Positions 4,942 through 19,400 of a DNA stretch of 64,000 bases are shown here, piece by piece; within the stretch, counting starts at the first letter, position 1; the number at the start of each line of letters is the position of its first letter. The notes under the pieces are model-generated. The model was not told the origin of the DNA. It did not search any database and saw nothing but the letters and a program-made list of their open reading frames with translations. The position numbers and the translations under genes are program-made. This DNA is from a virus (Duplodnaviria > Caudoviricetes): IMG/VR virus record IMGVR_UViG_3300042366_000810, positions 6,089 through 70,088 of that record. One strand, given 5' to 3'.

Positions 4942-6918
4942 ATGGCAACAGTCACAAAAGACTTTAAAGTAAAGAATGGTCTGATTGTTGAAGGCACAAC
5001 AGGTACCATCAACAACTATGACATTCTTACAAAGAAACAAGATGACCAAAATTATATTATTGGTCTTATTGGTGGATCAGCAACATCTAATGCTACTGCA
5101 AATGCAGTAGTTCTTCGTGATGGAAACGCAAATTTTGCTGCAAATGTAATTACAGCAGATCTTGTCGGTGATGTAACTGGTCAAGTATCAGATATTTCTA
5201 ACTTTGATACAGATGATCTTACAGAAGGAAATAATTTATACTTTACAAATGCACGTGCTGAAGCAGCATTAGCAGGATTATACGATCCAGCAGGTTCTGC
5301 AGCAAATGCACAATCTGCAGCAGAAGATTATGCAGATAGTCTTGGAGTAAATTATGATGCAGCAGGTTCTGCAGCAAATGCTCTTTCAGATGCACAAGAT
5401 TATACAGATACACATAGTGATGCTACAACTGGCGTTCATGGAGTAAATGGAAATGTTGTTGGAACATCTGATACACAAACACTTAGCAACAAAACAATCA
5501 GTGATGATTTAATTTTTGTTGATGGAGCAAATGGAGAAAATACAGTAGAAGCAGTTGGTAACAATTTAGTTCTTACATCAAATGATGGAGAAATTATTCT
5601 TGTTGCAGGAAGCGGAAAGCATTCTTACATTGGTTCTTCTTCAGAAGGAAATAGAATTGCAACAGCAGCAGATGTTGATGCTGCAACAGCAGGTTTATCT
5701 TGGAAAGTAGCAGTTAATCTTCTTGCAGACTCTGATGTAAACATGACTGGTTCAACAAATACTTTAGTAATTGATGGACATGCTGCATTAGATACTAATG
5801 ATGTAGGATATCGCATTCTTCTTAGTAACCAAGATGTTGATTCCGAAAATGGTATTTATGAATATACAGAATCCGCTGGAACATATACACTTACTCGTAC
5901 AGAAGATGCAGATGCATTTGCTGAACTAGTTGGTGCAGCAGTATTCGTAATGGAAGGAACTCAGTATGGTCAAACATCTTGGGTTCAATCTAATCACTAT
6001 TTAACAGATTTTACATCTCAGGATTGGGTACAGTTCTCAGGTGCAGGATCTGTGACTGCTGGAACAGGTATCATCGTAGATGGTCTTGAAATTTCAGTAG
6101 ATACAAACGTTATTGCTACTGTAAGTTATGTAGATAATCAAACTACAGATGATTTAACAGAAGGCACTACAAATCTATACTTTACAAATGCCCGTGCTGA
6201 GGCAGCAGTAGGAAATCTAGATACAGACGATCTATCAGAAGGCGTAACAAATCTATATTTCACTAATGCTAGGGCTCAAGCAGCAGTTGCAGGAGATATT
6301 ACTTCAGCAATTGATGCACTTGATACAGATGATATTGAAGAGGGCGCAACCAATCTTTATCACACTGATCAACGCTCAGTTGATGCCGTAGCATCTGCTA
6401 TTAGCGGTGGAACACAAACAAATATTTCTGTTTCTTACAATAACGTAAGCGGAAAATTTGATTTCGTTGCAGAAAATGGTGTTGATGATTCAACTACTGA
6501 TGATCTAGACGAAGGTACAAGCAATTTATACTTTACAAATGCTCGTGCAGTTGCTGCTCTTGAAGCAGTTACTCCAGATTTCCCTGCAGTAGAGATTGCA
6601 AATGTAGCAAAGCAAGTTGCAGCAGAAGCATCTGTTCCAACTGCTAGCACAAACACAGCAGTATCTTGGGCAAAAGCAGATTATCGTTCTGCAGAGTTCT
6701 TAGTTAAGATTGCTAATGGATCTCATACAGAGGTTTCAAAGGTTATCCTAACACTTGACACATCAGACAACGTTGCAATTACAGAATATGCAATGGTTGG
6801 AACAAATGGCTCACTTGGATCTGTTTCAGCAGATGTAAGTGGTTCAGATGTTCGTGTACGTGTCACAACTGATAATAACAACTCAACAGTTGCAGTTATC
6901 GGAACACTTTTGAAGTAA
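4942..6918 (+). CDS. Long tail fibre protein with internal repeats
   Basis: Five TDDLxEG(x)xNLYFT-type repeats, YDxAGSAANA segments, Ala/Thr/Asp-rich; RBS AAGGAG. Confidence 0.75.
   Translation: MATVTKDFKVKNGLIVEGTTGTINNYDILTKKQDDQNYIIGLIGGSATSNATANAVVLRDGNANFAANVITADLVGDVTGQVSDISNFDTDDLTEGNNLYFTNARAEAALAGLYDPAGSAANAQSAAEDYADSLGVNYDAAGSAANALSDAQDYTDTHSDATTGVHGVNGNVVGTSDTQTLSNKTISDDLIFVDGANGENTVEAVGNNLVLTSNDGEIILVAGSGKHSYIGSSSEGNRIATAADVDAATAGLSWKVAVNLLADSDVNMTGSTNTLVIDGHAALDTNDVGYRILLSNQDVDSENGIYEYTESAGTYTLTRTEDADAFAELVGAAVFVMEGTQYGQTSWVQSNHYLTDFTSQDWVQFSGAGSVTAGTGIIVDGLEISVDTNVIATVSYVDNQTTDDLTEGTTNLYFTNARAEAAVGNLDTDDLSEGVTNLYFTNARAQAAVAGDITSAIDALDTDDIEEGATNLYHTDQRSVDAVASAISGGTQTNISVSYNNVSGKFDFVAENGVDDSTTDDLDEGTSNLYFTNARAVAALEAVTPDFPAVEIANVAKQVAAEASVPTASTNTAVSWAKADYRSAEFLVKIANGSHTEVSKVILTLDTSDNVAITEYAMVGTNGSLGSVSADVSGSDVRVRVTTDNNNSTVAVIGTLLK
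5206..6560 (+). repeat. Five dispersed protein-level repeats (T/D)TDDLxEG-x-NLYFTNARA
   Basis: DTDDLTEGNNLYFTNARA; TTDDLTEGTTNLYFTNARA; DTDDLSEGVTNLYFTNARA; DTDDIEEGATNLYHTDQRS; TTDDLDEGTSNLYFTNARA. Confidence 0.85.
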
Positions 6919-10383: not shown

Positions 10384-11028
10384 ATGGAATATATACCACC
10401 CAAAAATAGTACTAGTACGTCAAAAATAGCACATAAATTTTTTGAAAGAAATTTAAATAATAATTTAGATGATTTGGCAAATTTTTTGCATGTTCAATAT
10501 AAAAGAATAGAACAAGGTGAAATATTAAAAAACGATAAAAATGAAAAATCTATTTGGGATTCATCTGGTAGTGTTACGACCTCAAAATGGAATAAATATA
10601 ATGTTTTTCAATTTTATCATCCAGCAATTCACAATTTGTTTAGAGCAGTAAGATCTATGACTCTCGAGGCATGTAATCATTATAATATTGATTTTGATAA
10701 AGAACAATTTTGGGTTCAAGGTTGGTTTAATATAAATTATAATCATATTGGTAAATTAGATTGGCATGAACACGGAGGAAATGGTGCACCATGGTTTCAT
10801 GGATATTATGCAGTTAAAGCAGAACCATCAATTACACACTATAAAGTTTTTGAAAATGAAATAGAAAATATTAATAAAAATAATAGAGCAATTCTTTCAG
10901 AAACTGGCCACCCACATGCAATGGGAGATTGGGACTGGGATGGACCAAGAATAACCATTGCTTACGATGTAATTCCATTTAGAGGCGTTATGCACAATTG
11001 GGAGCAACATTGGATACCTCTAGCATAA
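10384..11028 (+). CDS. Putative non-heme Fe(II)/2OG oxygenase (double-stranded beta-helix), paralogue 1
   Basis: WFN..WHEH..FHGYY.V..GHPH..RITIAYD: HxH...H facial triad plus distal Arg. Confidence 0.65.
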   Translation: MEYIPPKNSTSTSKIAHKFFERNLNNNLDDLANFLHVQYKRIEQGEILKNDKNEKSIWDSSGSVTTSKWNKYNVFQFYHPAIHNLFRAVRSMTLEACNHYNIDFDKEQFWVQGWFNINYNHIGKLDWHEHGGNGAPWFHGYYAVKAEPSITHYKVFENEIENINKNNRAILSETGHPHAMGDWDWDGPRITIAYDVIPFRGVMHNWEQHWIPLA

Positions 11029-11669
11029 AAAAACCACATAAGTTTTTTGATAGATTTTTAAATAATGACTTAAATGATTTATACAATTATTTAACCAATA
11101 TACATAAAGAGATTTTATATAAAAATATTTTTAACGTGCCAGAAAATGAACTAAAAAAATTTAACGAATTAAGTGCAGCGCCAACCAAGTTGAATCAGTA
11201 TTACAATATATTTAGTTTTAATCATAATAGTATTAAAAATTTACAAAATACTTTAAAAGATATGACTATAGAAGCATGTGAATATTATGAATATAATTTT
11301 GACGAACAAGATTATGTTATTTCGGGGTGGTTTAATTTAGATTATCAAAGTCAACAAGGAGAAGTCTCTCCTATCAATAAACCAGAATTCTTTCACGATC
11401 ATTCTGAAGGAAGTGGAATGCCAGTTTTACATGGATACTATTGTGTAAATGCAGAACCGTCGTCAACATTTTATAAAATTGATAAAAACGAAAAAAATAT
11501 TTTTGAAAATATAAACAAAAATAATCGTGCAATCTTATCTGAAACTGGTCATCCCCATGGAAGAGATGATTGGCATTTAGATAAACCAAGAATAACAATT
11601 GCATATGATATTGTTCCAATAAAATATTTTGAAAAAAAAGAAAAGGGGTATATGTGGATCAGATTATAA
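10998..11669 (+). CDS. Putative Fe(II)/2OG oxygenase, paralogue 2
   Basis: GWFN..FHDH..LHGYYCVNAEPS..AILSETGHPH..PRITIAYD; clearly paralogous to 10384. Start may be TTG near 11010. Confidence 0.65.
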   Translation: MGATLDTSSIKKPHKFFDRFLNNDLNDLYNYLTNIHKEILYKNIFNVPENELKKFNELSAAPTKLNQYYNIFSFNHNSIKNLQNTLKDMTIEACEYYEYNFDEQDYVISGWFNLDYQSQQGEVSPINKPEFFHDHSEGSGMPVLHGYYCVNAEPSSTFYKIDKNEKNIFENINKNNRAILSETGHPHGRDDWHLDKPRITIAYDIVPIKYFEKKEKGYMWIRL

Positions 11670-12376
11670 ATAAACCACATAAATTTTTTAAAAAAAATGT
11701 TAACAATAATTTAACAGACATGTTGGTTTTTTCTAAAGAGGTTAATGATATTGTTACAAGCAATACTGGCTATGACTTAAAAAATACATTTTTAGATACT
11801 AGTAAAAGAAATACACATGATACTGTAATGGATTCATGGCACATTACATATAATATTTTTGAGTATGAAAATGAGGGTATTAAAAATATAAAATCAACAA
11901 TTAAAGAATTAGTCATTGAAGCATGCGAATATTATGGTATTGATGCAAAAGAACAACAATATATGTTAAAAGGTCATTTAAACTATTATGCAGGACCTAA
12001 ATTAGTTAATTTTAAAAATGCTGTGTGGGATAATCATGGTAATGATCCTTTAGAGTTTCATGGCTATTATTGTATTAATGCAGAGCCATCAATAACGTAT
12101 TATTTAATCAATGACGATGTAGTGGAAAATGAAAATAAAAATAATATAGCGCTTTTATCTCAAAATGGTTATCACCATATTGTAGGAAATTGGTTATCTG
12201 AAGATGTTAGAGTAACTATTGGGTATAATGTATTTCCATTAAATAAAATTCCAAAAAATATAAAGGACATCCCCGCTGGGTCAAAAATTTATGGCTGGGA
12301 TCCACATAAACGTGAATATGCATCAACAATAATTGATAGAGATTTAACTTTTGGTCAATGGATTCCTTTAATATAA
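11654..12376 (+). CDS. Putative Fe(II)/2OG oxygenase, paralogue 3 (more divergent)
   Basis: KPHKFF N-terminus; WDNH..FHGYYCINAEPS..GYHH..RVTIGYN. Confidence 0.6.
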   Translation: MDQIINKPHKFFKKNVNNNLTDMLVFSKEVNDIVTSNTGYDLKNTFLDTSKRNTHDTVMDSWHITYNIFEYENEGIKNIKSTIKELVIEACEYYGIDAKEQQYMLKGHLNYYAGPKLVNFKNAVWDNHGNDPLEFHGYYCINAEPSITYYLINDDVVENENKNNIALLSQNGYHHIVGNWLSEDVRVTIGYNVFPLNKIPKNIKDIPAGSKIYGWDPHKREYASTIIDRDLTFGQWIPLI

Positions 12377-12407
12377 AATTAGATATTTATAAAGAAAGGA
12401 CTTTGTT

Positions 12408-12536
12408 ATGAAAAACTTTTATTGTTTTTTATTGGGTCATAAAAAAGAAAATATAGAATGTCCTTATACAAAAATAGTGTATACTATATGTGTTAGGTGT
12501 AAACCAAAACATAGAACAGTTCTAAGATTTCAATAA
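12408..12536 (+). CDS. 42-aa Cys/His-rich small protein (possible Zn finger)
   Basis: MKNFYCFLLGHKKENIECPYTKIVYTICVRCKPKHRTVLRFQ*; RBS aaagga; below the ORF-track length cutoff. Confidence 0.6.
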   Translation: MKNFYCFLLGHKKENIECPYTKIVYTICVRCKPKHRTVLRFQ

Positions 12537-12581
12537 CTCTCTACCTTAACTTGATATAGAGTTTTATTTTTTTGAAAACTC

Positions 12582-12590
12582 TGCTATAAT
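12582..12590 (+). promoter_or_regulatory. Extended -10 TGCTATAAT upstream of nrdJ
   Basis: Followed by RBS aggag and ATG 12622. Confidence 0.6.
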
Positions 12591-12621
12591 TGCTTTACCA
12601 AAATAATAGGAGATTATACGT

Positions 12622-14667
12622 ATGTCAGACTTTTTTTCTTTTAAATTATCATCAGACTTTGTGGACAGTTATAAAAAAACAGAATCTCCCTTTGGATTTC
12701 GTGATGCTGCTACTAACTCTCTAGGAGAGGTTACCTTTATTCGTACATATTCTCGTATGAAAGAAGATGGAACAAAAGAAAGATGGTATGAAGTTTGTAA
12801 GCGTGTAATTGAGGGTATGTATTCTGTTCAAAAAAACCATGCTAAAGAAAATCGTTTACCATGGAATGACTATAAGGCTCAGAAGTCTGCACAAGAAGCA
12901 TTTGATCGTTTATTTAATTTAAAGTGGACCCCTCCTGGTAGAGGTTTGTGGGCTTTTGGAACTCCCATGACCATGGAAAAAAGAAACTCTGCCTCTTTAC
13001 AAAATTGTGCGATGGTATCTACTCATGATATTGATCGTAATGATCCAGGTGCATTGTTTGCATGGGTCATGGATGCATTAATGTTGGGTATTGGTGTAGG
13101 ATTTGATACTTTAGGACAAGAAAAAGAAATGTTAATTTATTCACCAACAGAGCCACCATCTATATATAAAATTCCAGATACTCGAGAGGGTTGGGTAGAA
13201 TCTGTTAGATTATTGATTAATTCATTTCTTAGAGCAAATCAATCAATACAAGAGTTTAATTATGACCTAATAAGGCCTCTAGGAGCCCCAATAAAGGGCT
13301 TTGGAGGAGTCGCTAGTGGTCCAGAGCCATTAAAAGATTTACATAGCCGTATACGCAATGTAATAGGTTCTAGAGCAGGAGATATTTTAGATAGTAGAGC
13401 AATTGTAGACATTATAAATCTTATTGGTACATGTGTTGTTGCTGGCAATGTTCGTCGTTCCGCTACCCTTGCATTAGGAACTGCAGGAGATGATATTTTT
13501 ATCAATTTAAAAAATCCAGAAGTATTTTCAGAAAGAAACTCTTATGATCCAGCAAAACCAGGTTGGGCTTGGATGTCAAATAATTCTATTGATGCAAAAG
13601 TTGGAACAAAATACGAAGATTATGTTGATTTAATTTCAAACAATGGGGAGCCAGGCTTTATTTGGCTTGATGTTGCTCGTAATTATGGACGCTTAGCAGA
13701 TCCCGCTGATGGAAAAGATTATCGTGTTATGGGATTTAATCCATGTGCAGAACAACCATTGGAATCTTATGAACTTTGTACATTAGTAGAAGTTCATTTA
13801 AATCGTCATGAAGATAAAGAAGATTTTTTACGTACACTAAAATTTGCTTATTTATATGGAAAGGCAGTTACACTTCTTCCAACACACTGGCAAACAACAA
13901 ATGGAATTATGCAGCGTAATCGTCGTATTGGAACATCATTAACAGGTATTGCATCATTCGCTGACACTAAAGGAATGCCAGCATTGCGTGAATGGATGGA
14001 TGAAGGATATAATAAAATTCGTCAATACGATCATTCATATTCAGAATGGCTATGTGTACGTGAATCAATTCGTGTAACAACTGTAAAACCTTCTGGATCT
14101 GTTTCGTTGTTATCTGGAGCAACTCCTGGAGTTCATTGGGGGCCTGGAGGTCCATTTTATTTACGTGCTGTTAGATTTGGAAATACAGATCCAATGCTTC
14201 ATTTATTTAAAGCAGCGGGATATAAGATTGAAGCAGATCTAGTATCAGCAAATACTTCAGTAGTATATTTCCCAATAGCATCTGGGCATCCACGATCTGA
14301 AAAAGATGTAAGTCTTTTTGAAAAAATTGGTTTGGCAGCAACTGCTCAAAAATATTGGTCAGATAATGGAGTTTCTGTAACATTGTCATTTAATAAAGAG
14401 GCTGAGACTAAATTTGTTGCTCCAGCATTACAAATGTATGAAGGACAACTTAAGGCAGTATCTTTCTTGCCTATGGGCAATGAGGTTTATCCACAACAAC
14501 CATATAACGAAATAAGTAAAGAAGAGTATGAATCTTATGTTGGTAAAATTGCAAAGATTGATTGGTCTGCAATTTATGATGGAGTGGATAATTTAGAGGC
14601 TCAAGGAGAGATGTATTGCACTACAGATTATTGTGAAATTAAAACAGTAAAGGAAAATAGCAAATGA
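12622..14667 (+). CDS. nrdJ: Class II (adenosylcobalamin-dependent) ribonucleotide reductase, monomeric type
   Basis: RTYSR, PPGRGLW, LQNC, NPCAEQPL..ELC.L.E (N-x-C-x-E), TTVKPSGS.SLL, C-terminal C-x4-C; no intein. Confidence 0.95.
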   Translation: MSDFFSFKLSSDFVDSYKKTESPFGFRDAATNSLGEVTFIRTYSRMKEDGTKERWYEVCKRVIEGMYSVQKNHAKENRLPWNDYKAQKSAQEAFDRLFNLKWTPPGRGLWAFGTPMTMEKRNSASLQNCAMVSTHDIDRNDPGALFAWVMDALMLGIGVGFDTLGQEKEMLIYSPTEPPSIYKIPDTREGWVESVRLLINSFLRANQSIQEFNYDLIRPLGAPIKGFGGVASGPEPLKDLHSRIRNVIGSRAGDILDSRAIVDIINLIGTCVVAGNVRRSATLALGTAGDDIFINLKNPEVFSERNSYDPAKPGWAWMSNNSIDAKVGTKYEDYVDLISNNGEPGFIWLDVARNYGRLADPADGKDYRVMGFNPCAEQPLESYELCTLVEVHLNRHEDKEDFLRTLKFAYLYGKAVTLLPTHWQTTNGIMQRNRRIGTSLTGIASFADTKGMPALREWMDEGYNKIRQYDHSYSEWLCVRESIRVTTVKPSGSVSLLSGATPGVHWGPGGPFYLRAVRFGNTDPMLHLFKAAGYKIEADLVSANTSVVYFPIASGHPRSEKDVSLFEKIGLAATAQKYWSDNGVSVTLSFNKEAETKFVAPALQMYEGQLKAVSFLPMGNEVYPQQPYNEISKEEYESYVGKIAKIDWSAIYDGVDNLEAQGEMYCTTDYCEIKTVKENSK

Positions 14668-15116
14668 AAAGAATATTGATATCAGCAGCAATTTTTTTAT
14701 TAGTTTTTGCTGGTTTACAAAGTATAACTAAATCAAATAATGATTGTGTTAATCTTTATATTGATTACAGTGTATTAAATAATCAAACAAAAATAACAAA
14801 ATGTATAGAAGCGTCTAAAGATACAACTGCATTAGATATTTTAAGAAAGGCTAATCTTAAGATAGAAGGAACTAAAAAGTATGGACTTAGCGTGGTATGT
14901 AGAGTTAATGGGCTTCCAAATCAAATAATGGAATCATGTGAAACAATGCCACCAGAAAATGCATACTGGGCACTTATAGTTAAAGAAAAACAAAAAGTTC
15001 CTTTTCCAACTAGTGAATGGGGTTGGGGACAATTAGCAGTTGATCAACAGTTGTTAAGTCCAGGAGATTCTATTGGATTAGTTTGGGCCAATAATGGAAA
15101 GGTTATATTTCCATGA
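14664..15116 (+). CDS. Exported beta-grasp protein resembling DUF4430 / transcobalamin C-terminal domain (putative B12-binding)
   Basis: Signal or anchor N-terminus; TALDILRKA..IEGTKKYG..VCRVNGLP..C..MPP..AYW..W.W..PGDSIG pattern; four Cys; ATGA overlap with nrdJ. Confidence 0.6.
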   Translation: MKRILISAAIFLLVFAGLQSITKSNNDCVNLYIDYSVLNNQTKITKCIEASKDTTALDILRKANLKIEGTKKYGLSVVCRVNGLPNQIMESCETMPPENAYWALIVKEKQKVPFPTSEWGWGQLAVDQQLLSPGDSIGLVWANNGKVIFP

Positions 15117-15277
15117 AATTAGCATACAAAACATTAGATAACGTTATAGAGTTTCCACTACAAAAACACAAGCCTAAAGCCATACAATATATTTTTCAAT
15201 TAGTTATAAATTTATCTGCACTTTATATGGCTAATAAATTTACAGTTGATATTTGGCGTTCTTTGACGGGACACTAA
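15113..15277 (+). CDS. 54-aa small protein with one hydrophobic segment
   Basis: MKLAYKTLDNVIEFPLQKHKPKAIQYIFQLVINLSALYMANKFTVDIWRSLTGH*; ATGA overlap upstream and TAATG overlap with pduO. Not in the ORF track. Confidence 0.7.
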   Translation: MKLAYKTLDNVIEFPLQKHKPKAIQYIFQLVINLSALYMANKFTVDIWRSLTGH

Positions 15278-15771
15278 TGGTTCACTTAACTCGTATATAT
15301 ACAAAAACTGGTGATGATGGAAAAACTTCTACTGCTACAAATGAAAGAATAGATAAAAGTAGCACTTTAATTGAAGCAATTGGTGCAGTAGATGAAGCCA
15401 ATTCTGCTATTGGAATGGCAACAGAATATCATAATGATATTATAGATAGAATACAAAGTGATTTGTTCGACCTTGGAGCAGAACTTTCTGGTGCTTCAAC
15501 AATAACAATATCTGAAGAAAGAATTACTTATTTAGAAAATGTTATTGATGACTATAATGAATTTTTAGAGCCACTACATTCTTTTGTTCTACCTACAGGT
15601 CCTCTTCATAATGCAAGAACAATAGTTAGAAGAGCAGAGCGAGAGGTTTGGAAAGTAGAAGGGTTAAATATAAACATTGCAAAATATTTAAATCGACTTT
15701 CAGACTTATTGTTTGTTATGGCAAGATATCATAATAAAGGTAATGAAAAATTATGGATTCCCAGAAATTAA
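15277..15771 (+). CDS. pduO: ATP:cob(I)alamin adenosyltransferase, PduO type
   Basis: RIYTKTGDDGKT, GAVDEANSAIG, ARTIVRRAER, YLNRLSDLLFVMAR. Start set at ATG 15277. Confidence 0.93.
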   Translation: MVHLTRIYTKTGDDGKTSTATNERIDKSSTLIEAIGAVDEANSAIGMATEYHNDIIDRIQSDLFDLGAELSGASTITISEERITYLENVIDDYNEFLEPLHSFVLPTGPLHNARTIVRRAEREVWKVEGLNINIAKYLNRLSDLLFVMARYHNKGNEKLWIPRN

Positions 15772-15783
15772 TGAAAGGAAAAT

Positions 15784-16383
15784 ATGAAATATCAAATAAT
15801 TAATGTTGCAACCAAAGAAGATTTAGAACTAATTAATAATTTTGTTAATACTATAAAATTTAATACCAAAGAAGACCATATTCCTCTTCATGATCCATTA
15901 TTTAGTAATCCTAATGTTAATTTTGACATAACTACTTATGGAGATATGCCAAGAGAAGTCGTTTCAATATTTGAAAAATATTGTGAGGCAATTAAAGATG
16001 CTGTAACAAAAATCACTAATATAGAGTACGACCCTCCTATATTGGGTAAAAGTTATATAATGAGGTATTCTCCTGGAACTAGTATTGGCATGCATTATTC
16101 AAGCAATAGGCCAAATAATACTTTTAGATCTATAGTAAAATGGAACGATAATCATGAAGGTGGCGTTCTTAAATTTAAAAATTATAAAGTTAATAAAAAT
16201 TTAATTGCTGGAGATTGTATCATTTTCCCTGAAAATGAAGACTTTATGATAGAGGTAACAAAGATAGAAAAAAACAACATGTTTATATCGGATTTTTGGA
16301 ATGCTCCAGTTGGCCAATCCCCATATCCAGGGTTAAAGTATGAAGAAATTTATTGGGGAAATCCTCTTTGGGAAAATCTTTAA
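15784..16383 (+). CDS. Prolyl-4-hydroxylase-like 2OG-Fe(II) oxygenase fold with degenerate metal ligands
   Basis: Y.PG..IGMHYS..IVKWNDNHEGG.L.F..GD.IIFP; the HxD Asp and the distal His appear replaced. Confidence 0.55.
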   Translation: MKYQIINVATKEDLELINNFVNTIKFNTKEDHIPLHDPLFSNPNVNFDITTYGDMPREVVSIFEKYCEAIKDAVTKITNIEYDPPILGKSYIMRYSPGTSIGMHYSSNRPNNTFRSIVKWNDNHEGGVLKFKNYKVNKNLIAGDCIIFPENEDFMIEVTKIEKNNMFISDFWNAPVGQSPYPGLKYEEIYWGNPLWENL

Positions 16384-16403
16384 TATGATAAAATAGACTT
16401 TAT

Positions 16404-19400
16404 ATGTCTATTGTATCTAATTTATATGCTGAAAAGGTTTTTGCCGAACATCCGCTAGCCCTATGGTCATTAGACGAAAAAGTAGATTATTTATCTTTTA
16501 TTACTGAAGAACAAAGAAGCATCTCGAATACTTGGTCTTTTTCAGATTGTACAGTAACTGAAGAAAATATAGATATAAATAAACCCTTTCTTGAAAGTGT
16601 TTTAAATTTAATAGAATTTGACAACTTTATTGAAACATCAAAAGAAATAACTTTTATTGGCGAAGACTTAGAATCATTTAGTGCCTTAAACGAAGAATAT
16701 GCAACACTCACCATAGGCTCTTATTTTTATACAACTAGTCCTTATATTAAATCTATTAGTATTGGGTTTGAATATATAGACACTAGTTCTTTAGAAAACA
16801 TTCAAGCATTACAAAAATTTGAAACAATTCCTACTTCAGAGTGGATGTTTGTATCTCATACTATTGAATATCCACAACAAAATTCAAATTTTAGACCATT
16901 GATAAAAATAGAATTCCAAAATGGGTCAACAACCACAGATAATTATCAAATATATATAAATGGCATAACTGTGGGGCAGTGGGCAGAAGAATATCATACA
17001 ACATCATTAGGAACGTTAACCATACCATTTCCTACAGATATTAATTTAAATAATATTGATAGTTGTGTAAAGGCAAATGCATACGGACTTGGAACAAAAA
17101 ATGGATACTACCTAGTTAATAATAATACATTAATGTCTAAAAATATTGGTATTCCTATGGTTTATGGAGCATCAACTGTTACAAAAATTTATTCAAATAA
17201 TAATAATCCGTCGTTAATTGTTCCAGGTTTTGGGTTTTTAAATAATGCTGGTAAGTATAAAGAGTATACATTGGAAATGTGGTTAAAGATTAATTCAGAT
17301 GAAAAAACACCAAAAAGAATTTTTGGACCAATTTCTTCAACTGATGGACTTTATGTGGAGGGTGGATTTTTAACTTTAGTAGTTGGAAAATATTTTGCAT
17401 CTCATTTTATAGGTCAATGGTATAGGCCAATGTTAATTCAAATAAGAGTTATTAATAATTCTATTGTTATGTTAATAAATGGAGAACAAGTTGTTAGTTT
17501 AAATATTGATACAAATAGTTTAAATTTACCAGAAGAGTATTCGGCAGGAAAATCAAACGATTGGCTTGGATTTTATTCATATGATAAAATCAATCCTTTT
17601 GAAATAGATTGTATATCTTTATATTCTTATAGTGTTCCAGAGTTTATTGCTAAAAGAAGATGGGTGTATGGCCAGGCAGTAACATCTCCAGAAACTATTA
17701 ATTCTGCATATGCTGGAACTACCGCCTATATTGATTATCCATTTGCCAACTATAGTGCTAACTATACATATCCAAATTTTGGAAATTGGAATCAAGGAAC
17801 TTTTGATAATTTATCAACAAGAGAAATATCTCTGAATTCTCCAGAATATACTTTACCAATAATATACACAGATAATTTATCTTTAGATGATCTTTATAAT
17901 GATTGTTATAATATTAATTTATCTGGAAATAAGTTTTTTACATTTCGACCTAATAGCGTATGGAATGACAAAAATACATATATAAATGTAAACCAATCTT
18001 CAATTATTCAAGATGAAATTCATGCAATTTATATGGCCTTTGAGCATACCGATTATAATGCAAATGAAGAAATTTTAATAAAATTTTATAATGATTTTAA
18101 TGATAACTATTTTAAAATTATTACAATAGATGGAGATATTAAATATATTTTAAACTATAATGGAGTTAACACCATACTCAAAACAATTAATAATTATAGT
18201 TTAAATGATCCAATATCTGTAGGTATATCAATACATGAAATAGTTAATTATTTTGGTGGAGATACTGCAGTATTTTTCGGTTCTCAAAATAATTTAAAGT
18301 TTTATATAGCGGGAGATGGAAATAAAGATAATTGTTTTGTGGGTAAAATTTATTCAGTTGGTATATCTACAGAGTATAACCTAAGTGTTATTAATAGTCA
18401 TTTTGATTCCCAGGGTTTTGTAAATATTTCAGATGCAGCGGATTTAATAGAACACACTGCAAGTTATACTTTGTTGCCATCAATAGCATATAATACATTT
18501 TTCTTAGACATAGGCATTTCTGGTTATTGGCAAGACTATATTCCTTTAAGTTACTTTGCAAAATATGTAGATAATAGCATTGGAGAAAGATATTATGGCT
18601 TAGACTTTTTACAATTTAATATAGATTATCCAGCCCCATCTACAAGCACAACAACCGAAATAATTATTGATCCTTATCCACAAGATCCAGAAGAAAATAC
18701 GCATGAATGGGATTATGAAGATTTAGACGTTGAATTTGATCATCCTATACAAAGACAATACGCTCAGTTAGGAAATTATTTATTTACTGGCTGGGAAAAT
18801 TATGAAGATGCTTCGCAAAAATCAATTAAAACTAATCAGTTAGATACTTCAGGTGCAAGTGTAAAATCATATATTAGCCTTCAATATATTCAAGATGGCG
18901 CTAACAGAAATATGCAATCTTATTCAAATATTGAATTAGTAAATCAAAGCAGAATTATAGATTTTTCTGAAATAAGTGGATGGAGTACAAAATTATTTGA
19001 GGTTGTTGATAATACATTAATATATCCTCCAACAAATGTTGATTTTAATAATTTAGCAGTAGTCACACATCTTGATTTTAACGTTCGTGGAGTTTTGACA
19101 AAGCCTATAGCAATTAAAAAATTAGAATATGCTTCTCAAACTTTTGACTCTACTACTTTTAATAAAATAGGAACAAGATTTGGGCTAAACCTATATCCAT
19201 ATAAAAAATCAGGAATTTATTATGATTATAAAACTAAAAATCCATTTAGTATTTATAAAGAAAGCACTCCATATTTATATAATACAAAAACAAGCGGAAT
19301 TGAAATAAGAGGCGAGGTAGATCCATATATTAGTCGAGGTATAGGAATTCCAATTAATGAAAACTCTGTTGGAAATTATAGAGTTAGCGCAATGCAATTT

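Follow-up and report, generated by a model that had tools for sequence, protein, structure and literature searches.

A candidate vitamin B12 supply cassette in a freshwater phage with a B12-dependent reductase

Four overlapping genes of a freshwater phage probably form a virus-encoded module for vitamin B12 supply, extending from capture of the vitamin, for which binding and export are predicted, to its use. The cassette lies on the plus strand of the window, the 64,000-nucleotide stretch of viral DNA that was analysed, and comprises nrdJ, a gene for a 150-residue β-grasp protein, a 54-residue ORF and pduO. This combination suggests that the virus helps to secure the B12 needed by its own dNTP enzyme. 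A sequence of capture, activation and use had been put forward in the preliminary description; with corrinoid binding taken as a prediction from the modelled fold, each computational test that could be applied speaks for that reading.

The two outer genes encode B12 enzymes. The product of nrdJ (positions 12622–14667; 681 residues) matches PF17975 (112 bits) and PF21995 (51 bits), both above the Pfam cut-off, and phrog_367 of PHROG (E = 1.5e-139); against the NCBIfam equivalog HMM for RTPR, TIGR02505, it scores 337.4 bits, where the cut-off is 340.05. The translation contains an NPC..E active-site motif and a C-terminal CxxxxC pair, which we take, from the L. leichmannii RTPR, to supply the thiyl-radical cysteine and the redox pair, respectively. 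On the profile matches the protein can confidently be classified as a class II (adenosylcobalamin-dependent) ribonucleoside-triphosphate reductase, probably of the monomeric RTPR type. The last gene, pduO (15277–15771), encodes 164 residues when read from the ATG of its TAATG junction; the program-made ORF list begins it at TTG 15253. Its product matches profile positions 1–170 of 171 in PF01923 (E = 3.7e-47; 161 bits against a cut-off of 24) and scores 152 bits against TIGR00636 (cut-off 108.45), and a nucleotide-binding motif, KTGDDGKT, lies near the N-terminus. Assignment to the PduO-type ATP:cob(I)alamin adenosyltransferases can likewise be made confidently from these matches, and the identities first proposed for both genes are thus borne out.

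The junctions within the cassette are short overlaps: ATGA at 14664–14667 between nrdJ and the β-grasp gene, ATGA at 15113–15116 between the β-grasp gene and the microprotein ORF, and TAATG at 15275–15279 between the microprotein ORF and pduO, the last being kept also in two related loci (L002 and L003). The original account of four ORFs chained in this way behind one extended −10 promoter proved exact on re-reading. The cassette is preceded by a conserved TGnTATAAT element; in the window, the extended −10 element TGCTATAAT occupies 12583–12591. Reading of the sequence upstream of nrdJ gave no usable −35 for TGCTATAAT, and the element is therefore missing from a two-hexamer promoter scan. Of 49 related viral loci, 47 have the pattern TGnTAnnnT in the 130 nt preceding nrdJ; in the example loci listed it is embedded in conserved sequence, AAAACTCTGCTATAAT, some 30 nt ahead of the nrdJ start codon. 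A Shine–Dalgarno sequence, AGGAG (12608–12612), stands 9 nt before the ATG and is kept in most related loci listed. Abutting the −10 element is an inverted repeat, AGAGTTTT-N9-AAAACTCT (12559–12583), possibly an operator or the terminator of an upstream unit; a similar arrangement of inverted repeat and −10 is visible in the listed sequences of related viral loci. A search of positions 11000–17000 against Rfam returned no family at E ≤ 1, so that the RF00174 cobalamin riboswitch is absent there, as had been claimed. Expression of the cassette would thus be independent of host B12 feedback.

The second gene (14664–15116) encodes a predicted membrane-tethered protein of 150 residues with a transcobalamin-β/DUF4430-like β-grasp fold. 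Its AF2 model has a pLDDT of 81. The best five VIA-align matches (2bb6, 5no0, 4kkj, 2pmv and 3u7z) superpose over 93–96 residues with Z of 10.1–11.5 and rmsd of 2.4–3.0, and all are TC, IF or HC β domains or DUF4430; the next fold, a generic β-grasp, has a Z of 6.8. The same set of TC, IF, HC and 3u7z stands on top in Foldseek, with E from 4e-4 to 1e-2. The model thus indicates a β-grasp superposable on the β domains of TC, IF and HC. The preliminary description had assigned the protein to a DUF4430/transcobalamin β-grasp: the fold stands, and membership in PF14478 (DUF4430) does not, since that profile was not reached at E ≤ 0.1 in a Pfam search of 14664–15113.

Other sequence comparisons were similarly negative. 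The protein has no Pfam, NCBIfam or PHROG match and none to the SCO2322 family NF040672 at its curated cut-off of 85 bits, and profiles of its family gave only chance matches to PDB sequences, reaching neither TC nor 3u7z. Several links to DUF4430 are nevertheless apparent. The fold of RUMGNA_00854 (PDB 3u7z) is matched with a Z of 10.1 over 96 residues, DUF4430 is found in 17% of the members of the language-model neighbour cluster, and one distant homologue matches PF14478 at E = 0.003. By curated sequence thresholds, the family is best described as a sister to Pfam DUF4430 and not as a member of it. Its alignment contains four invariant cysteines, at positions 28, 47, 79 and 92, and the N-terminus forms a putative hydrophobic anchor at about residues 4–20, with a mean KD of 2.26 over a 17-residue segment.

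The third gene (15113–15277) was missing from the ORF track and had been claimed from the letters alone. It encodes a microprotein of 54 residues with a basic N-terminus, one hydrophobic helix (about residues 23–39) and an invariant tail, DIWRSLTGH. By tblastn it is present in 79 of 80 related viral loci, in forms of 41, 44, 53 and 54 residues. Over its last 10 codons, synonymous codon differences outnumber non-synonymous ones by 1265 to 427, and codon position 2 is invariant. Such occurrence and purifying selection on the tail argue that the ORF is not due to chance; the earlier claim is upheld, and these comparisons identify a real gene and a co-inherited partner. Distant phage lineages have an equivalent ORF 3′ of the β-grasp gene; across lineages the microproteins span 41–63 residues, contain a single hydrophobic helix and invariably have His or Cys as the last residue of the tail. 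No usable match was found in Pfam, PHROG or NCBIfam, and HMM searches of six-frame ORFs from 92 cellular loci revealed no cellular counterpart. Derivation from the N-terminus of an ECF T component was considered and rejected, as no similarity was seen.

Conservation among viruses extends to the cassette as a whole. Relatives of the 150-residue protein are encoded on at least 163 viral contigs, and linkage was counted in 80 related viral contigs. The β-grasp gene adjoins nrdJ in 52 of 56 related viral loci, and pduO is kept adjacent in 72 of 75. In divergent phages, at about 33% identity, pduO, the β-grasp gene and the peptide are retained in a changed order. The supposed linkage of 14664–15116 to nrdJ and pduO in related phages is therefore confirmed, and for pduO it reaches distant phages as well. 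Among deposited phages (INPHARED isolates, release of 31 August 2025; 50,697 records), tblastn found no example of the 150-residue protein. In a tree, a branch with 100/99 support separates the phage-type sequences from 24 cell lipoproteins.

The cellular homologues are actinobacterial lipoproteins, with a lipobox, signal peptide or TM anchor in each relative examined; some are anchored by a C-terminal TM segment. These four-Cys proteins of ECF operons (SCO2322-like; NF040672/PF28005) are homologous to the phage protein, with profile E down to 1e-22 and beyond, and share with it the four cysteines and core motifs. They differ in having a lipobox and, usually, an insertion of 11–15 residues; their genes are followed by ECF T-A-A′ and S, whereas the phage gene is followed by the microprotein and pduO. 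The family occurs in 64 of 401 sampled Actinomycetes genomes, compared with 2 of 301 for canonical DUF4430. The Aurantimicrobium homologue scores 21.1 bits against NF040672, for which the cut-off is 85, and a literature search found no paper naming SCO2322.

In Microbacteriaceae the homologues head ECF operons. An ECF T-A-A′ fusion comes next in 77 of 80 loci, an ECF-S-like protein is present in 71 and a convergent B12-dependent metH in 65, a linkage that may reflect no more than shared gene order in this family. Rfam searches of ten of these loci found no riboswitch upstream of the operons, which counts against B12 supply. In other Actinomycetes, three of 10 sampled loci (L187, L189 and L193) are CbiQ + ABC-ABC operons with the β-grasp domain, and each has an RF00174 cobalamin riboswitch directly upstream on the same strand. 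The ECF operons, the metH neighbourhood and these riboswitches bear out the earlier statement that the domain occurs beside actinobacterial ECF cobalamin transporters.

The remaining phage record offers little about the host. No tRNA was found in it to serve as a host pointer, and a WhiB-like match is sub-threshold only. No match to ECF T (CbiQ), ECF S (ECF_trnsprt) or α-toroid genes was found in the 70-kb record, which is about 65% complete. With these genes absent from the record, a B12 function would depend on a host system.

These features may be combined in a pathway. The cassette would be transcribed from its single promoter and the genes translationally coupled. The 150-residue protein would be exported, anchored to the outside of the host membrane through the hydrophobic stretch at its N-terminus and stabilised by two disulfides, and would bind corrinoid in the manner of a transcobalamin β domain. 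The microprotein, at 41–63 residues with a single helix, may be its membrane partner, the terminal His (or Cys in other lineages) helping to hold the corrinoid or docking the pair onto an ECF transporter. A host ECF-type transporter would then import the cofactor, phage PduO would adenosylate cob(I)alamin to adenosylcobalamin, and phage RTPR would use the product to supply dNTPs for replication of the phage DNA.

This B12-supply reading is supported by the restriction of strong fold matches to corrinoid-binding β domains, by the N-terminal segment, the four cysteines and the anchored cellular homologues, and by the ECF genes, riboswitches and metH found near those homologues. Phage linkage, the NrdJ and PduO assignments and the well-supported branch in the tree add to it. 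It is weakened by the missed DUF4430 and SCO2322 thresholds, by the lack of ECF and toroid genes in the record and by the lack of a cellular counterpart for the microprotein, whose charge distribution does not fix its topology.

A more specific version, which is rather unlikely, is that the β-grasp protein and the microprotein act jointly as a minimal "viral transcobalamin" in two pieces. The terminal His, or Cys elsewhere, would be an axial cobalt ligand or a cap replacing the α domain; the microprotein would be a phage-specific family without a cellular counterpart; and the surface of the infected cell would capture corrinoids with high affinity and pass them to the host ECF importer.

Location at the cell surface also permits a different function. 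Phages commonly block nutrient receptors that they use. The pair could be a device for surface remodelling or superinfection exclusion that masks or displaces a host ECF-associated protein, possibly a phage receptor, or that blocks B12 uptake and starves competitors. A predicted membrane-tethered, extracytoplasmic protein from a host surface lipoprotein family, encoded in a record that lacks transporter parts, would suit such a role. The proposal seems distinctly unlikely, because it leaves unexplained the translational coupling to nrdJ and pduO and the linkage to pduO in rearranged cassettes, and because a phage dependent on AdoCbl would be harmed if uptake were blocked.

It is very unlikely, too, that the pair binds another tetrapyrrole, such as heme, and that its position beside nrdJ and pduO is a sign of scavenging for cofactors or iron in general. 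A precedent exists in L. sakei, where the ECF-like operon lsa1836–1840 encodes secreted transcobalamin β- and α-like proteins (Lsa1839 and Lsa1840) together with ECF Lsa1836–1838. That system has been tied experimentally to heme, not B12, which counts against the B12 reading; it differs from the phage cassette in being cellular and heme-linked and in having an α-like partner and a transporter (bioRxiv 10.1101/864751). Against heme stand the tight and repeated linkage to B12-dependent nrdJ and, in several phage lineages, to pduO, and the cellular operons in which the β-grasp domain is under cobalamin riboswitches; the metH neighbourhood also favours B12. Least probable of all is an intracellular cobalamin chaperone acting between PduO and NrdJ, with the small ORF a minor or regulatory product: the gene does sit between two cytoplasmic B12 enzymes, and adenosyltransferases hand AdoCbl directly to client enzymes, but the conserved N-terminal hydrophobic segment and four invariant cysteines, the lipobox, signal peptide or TM anchor of every cellular relative examined and the purifying selection on the small ORF as a protein all stand against it.

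The B12-supply reading may be set beside known systems. The mammalian β domains of TC, IF and HC (2bb6, 5no0, 2pmv and 4kkj) share the β-grasp with the phage protein over about 94 residues (Z 10.8–11.5, rmsd 2.4–2.5) and are extracellular, as the phage protein is predicted to be. It differs from them in its low identity (13–19%), with no match at the sequence level, in its lack of a fused α (toroid) domain and in its four cysteines, predicted membrane anchor, separate microprotein and viral origin. The isolated TC β domain binds cobalamin and cobinamide by itself (PMC5599065). In its reliance on a class II RTPR the phage resembles RTPR-carrying virioplankton, for which enhanced B12 uptake or production has been suggested as a speculation (PMC10547690), and viral cobalamin AMGs, cobS and cobT, have been reported (bioRxiv 10.1101/655167). 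Neither of those two studies describes an extracellular binder, a microprotein or a pduO cassette. In a literature search on phage, AMG and transcobalamin, the top-ranked papers did not mention transcobalamin.

A small, stand-alone domain with predicted corrinoid binding could serve as a reagent. The cassette also hints at a function for a large, uncharacterised family of actinobacterial lipoproteins in ECF operons, some of them under cobalamin riboswitches. Many abundant aquatic viruses need a B12-requiring reductase, while the vitamin is in short supply and the majority of hosts are auxotrophic. By what means these viruses obtain it is a question already raised (PMC10547690), for which the cassette provides a concrete, widespread and testable candidate, one that couples a predicted extracellular binder and a new microprotein with activation and use of the cofactor.

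The window (GC ~33%) derives from a 70-kb IMG/VR virus record with an estimated completeness of ~65% and encodes portal, head protease, capsid, tail-fibre and Pol III-alpha-type polymerase proteins. Four overlapping forward-strand genes form a cassette: nrdJ (12622-14667, 681 aa), the gene for a 150-aa β-grasp protein (14664-15116), a microprotein gene (15113-15277, 54 aa), and pduO (15277-15771, 164 aa counted from the ATG of its junction). Re-reading of the sequence reproduces exactly the ORF positions in the preliminary description and confirms the successive overlaps ATGA, ATGA and TAATG. The absence of a B12 riboswitch is likewise borne out, no Rfam family being found at E<=1 in window 11000-17000.

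An extended -10 element, TGCTATAAT (12583-12591, forward strand), lacks a -35 element and is followed by AGGAG (12608-12612, same strand) upstream of nrdJ. Of 49 related viral loci, 47 have the pattern TGnTAnnnT in the 130 nt that precede nrdJ, and in the examples inspected it appears in a AAAACTCTGCTATAAT context ~30 nt before the nrdJ ATG. Three AACTCT-type half-sites lie within 12533-12591: AACTCTCTA (12533-12541), TATAGAGTT (12556-12564) and AAAACTCT (12576-12583). The latter two make up an inverted repeat (8 bp, 9-nt loop) that adjoins the -10 element. Since a similar arrangement lies upstream of nrdJ in related phages, the repeat could be an operator or could govern a choice between terminator and antiterminator.

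The flanking genes are not constant. A 199-aa ORF at 15784-16383, 12 nt downstream of pduO, has weak PHROG matches (phrog_2297 'DNA endonuclease', E 4e-7; phrog_3531 'ferrochelatase', E 0.002) and, of 80 related loci, only 12 have it behind the cassette; it is thus placed outside the conserved module. Directly upstream of the cassette, 10384-12376 holds three tandem overlapping paralogues (214, 223 and 240 aa) that belong to no Pfam family, the last of which is present in only 7 of the 80 loci.

The outer genes of the cassette are readily assigned. NrdJ contains RNR_Alpha and the class II insertion domain, both above Pfam cut-offs, matches phrog_367 (E 1.5e-139), and carries an NPC..E motif and a C-terminal CxxxxC pair; on the equivalog model TIGR02505 for class II monomeric ribonucleoside-triphosphate reductase (RTPR) it scores 337 bits, slightly below the cut-off of 340. 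PduO is a full-length PduO-type adenosyltransferase, far above cut-off for both PF01923 (161 bits) and TIGR00636 (152 bits). Such proteins are rare among deposited phages, with 15 matching records, mostly short unannotated fragments.

The 150-aa protein has no match in Pfam, PHROG, NCBIfam or deposited phage genomes, and curated sequence models place it outside the DUF4430 and SCO2322 families. It does match 161 metagenomic protein clusters at E<=0.01, the best 120 of which are 57-92% identical to it. Alignment of 37 sequences reveals an N-terminal hydrophobic segment, four invariant cysteines, and strongly conserved motifs including VCRVNGLP, MPP..AYWA, WGWGQ and PGDSIGLV. The AlphaFold2 model built from this alignment (pLDDT 81, pTM 0.72) was compared exhaustively with 48,161 PDB representatives. 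The five best matches are bovine transcobalamin, the human transcobalamin (TC) β domain, haptocorrin, intrinsic factor and the DUF4430 protein 3u7z (Z 10.1-11.5, 93-96 aligned residues, rmsd 2.4-3.0), against Z 6.8 for the sixth, a generic β-grasp structure. Foldseek returns the same top set, and the transcobalamin-type fold predicted from the sequence therefore holds.

Linkage to nrdJ and pduO in related phages, on which the preliminary description had staked its reading, was sought in IMG/VR, where 163 relatives of the β-grasp protein were confirmed and the best 80 loci examined. Among loci with enough flank, nrdJ ends <=100 nt upstream of the β-grasp gene in 52 of 56 and pduO starts <=400 nt downstream in 72 of 75; tblastn detects the small ORF in 79 of 80. 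Loci L131, L150 and L152 keep nrdJ, the β-grasp gene and the peptide without downstream pduO, and L169 and L170 have the β-grasp gene, peptide and pduO but lack an upstream nrdJ. The wider neighbourhood varies, as in L003, whose flanking genes differ from those of L002. In more distant phage-like contigs (~33% identical) the set persists, rearranged: pduO, β-grasp gene and small ORF in L006/L007, L008 and L186, and the β-grasp gene with the small ORF in L183. In L009 the β-grasp gene (6001-6480) has neither pduO nor a WR..T-tailed peptide adjacent, and nrdJ lies 5 kb downstream. Its product, with a true lipobox (LSGC) and a cell-type insertion, may represent an intermediate or have been acquired independently. 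Among 36 sequences placed in a tree, a 100/99 branch parts 12 AT-rich phage-type proteins from 24 cell lipoproteins, groups that differ in composition and of which the first has verified phage context for only about half its members.

Searched with a profile, 1.84 billion representatives yielded 276 relatives at E<=0.001. One group is GC-rich, 170-210 aa long, and has a lipobox and the same four cysteines; another has a C-terminal TM anchor. The cellular variants P0150, P0152, P0159, P0161, P0192 and P0231 have no lipobox but instead a signal peptide that looks cleavable, an acidic linker, and an Arg-rich tail on a C-terminal TM helix. Some relatives are fused to prenyltransferase/squalene-cyclase-type toroids, recalling the alpha domain of transcobalamin. 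In a class-wide sample, 64 of 401 Actinomycetes genomes encode the β-grasp domain, against only 2 of 301 for canonical PF14478 (DUF4430).

Among 80 Microbacteriaceae loci (including Aurantimicrobium, Aquiluna, Pontimonas, Microbacterium and Agromyces), the lipoprotein gene is directly followed in 77 by an ECF transporter T component fused to two ABC ATPase domains, and neighbours an ECF-S-like membrane protein gene (~250 aa) in 71 and a convergent B12-dependent metH in 65; an Rfam scan of ten Microbacteriaceae loci found no riboswitch. The fusion, at 7495-9288 in L011 and in 76 other loci, joins a CbiQ-like T component and both ATPase domains in one ~600-aa polypeptide (T-A-A'); the S-like protein after it matches Pfam ECF_trnsprt only below threshold. 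Cobalamin riboswitches do occur in 4 of 10 more distant loci with the domain. In L187 a same-strand aptamer ends ~100 nt before the domain-encoding ORF, and in L189 and L193 the riboswitch is followed in turn by a 347-534-aa unknown protein, the β-grasp protein, CbiQ and ABC-ABC. Within 15 kb of L189 (1673-13399), four aptamers surround an operon with two 4-Cys copies of the domain, each preceded by an unannotated 350-500-aa protein that is possibly an alpha-like partner. The riboswitch-linked loci are B12-specific evidence for the family, independent of phage context.

The microprotein, of which no counterpart was detected in six-frame ORFs of 92 cellular loci, is mostly overlooked by gene callers, with only 13 clusters on record. 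Its forms (41, 44, 53 and 54 aa) have in common a basic, variable N-terminus, a ~17-residue hydrophobic segment (mean KD 1.4-2.0) and the invariant tail DIWRSLTGH; the flanking charges are compatible with more than one topology. The last ten codons show 1265 synonymous versus 427 non-synonymous differences and an invariant codon position 2, which indicates that the frame is selected as protein. Equivalent ORFs in distant lineages end in ..WRSMTGH, ..WRVLTCPC, ..WRLLCGC or ..FFPGC, so that the final residue is His or Cys in every lineage examined. In BtuM, Cys serves as the axial cobalt ligand. The axial ligand in transcobalamin is His, which also coordinates cobinamide on the isolated TC β domain (PMC5599065). 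By analogy, the terminal residue is an attractive but unproven candidate for a cobalt ligand or cap.

Viruses with B12-dependent RTPR have been described, with speculation about enhanced B12 uptake (PMC10547690), and viral cobS/cobT have been reported (bioRxiv 10.1101/655167). The literature search found no paper on a virus-encoded transcobalamin-like binder, the microprotein or the cassette. The component proteins fall into known superfamilies, and what appears undescribed is their combination in a virus, together with the microprotein.

That the β-grasp protein and microprotein bind another tetrapyrrole, for instance heme, for which L. sakei offers an analogy, is disfavoured, as is a role for the pair in receptor masking or blocking of uptake. 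Against each stands one or another of the recurrent linkage to pduO and nrdJ, the homologues under riboswitch control and the predicted export signals, and the same evidence disfavours an intracellular chaperone role for the β-grasp protein. On balance we favour the original proposal that the cassette is a module for B12 capture, activation and use with a putative corrinoid binder. The β-grasp protein, predicted to be tethered at the surface, would bind corrinoid, with the microprotein as its partner, and the two would pass it to a host ECF importer; searches of the 70-kb, ~65% complete phage record for ECF T, ECF S and toroid genes found none. Phage PduO would then produce AdoCbl, which the phage RTPR would consume.
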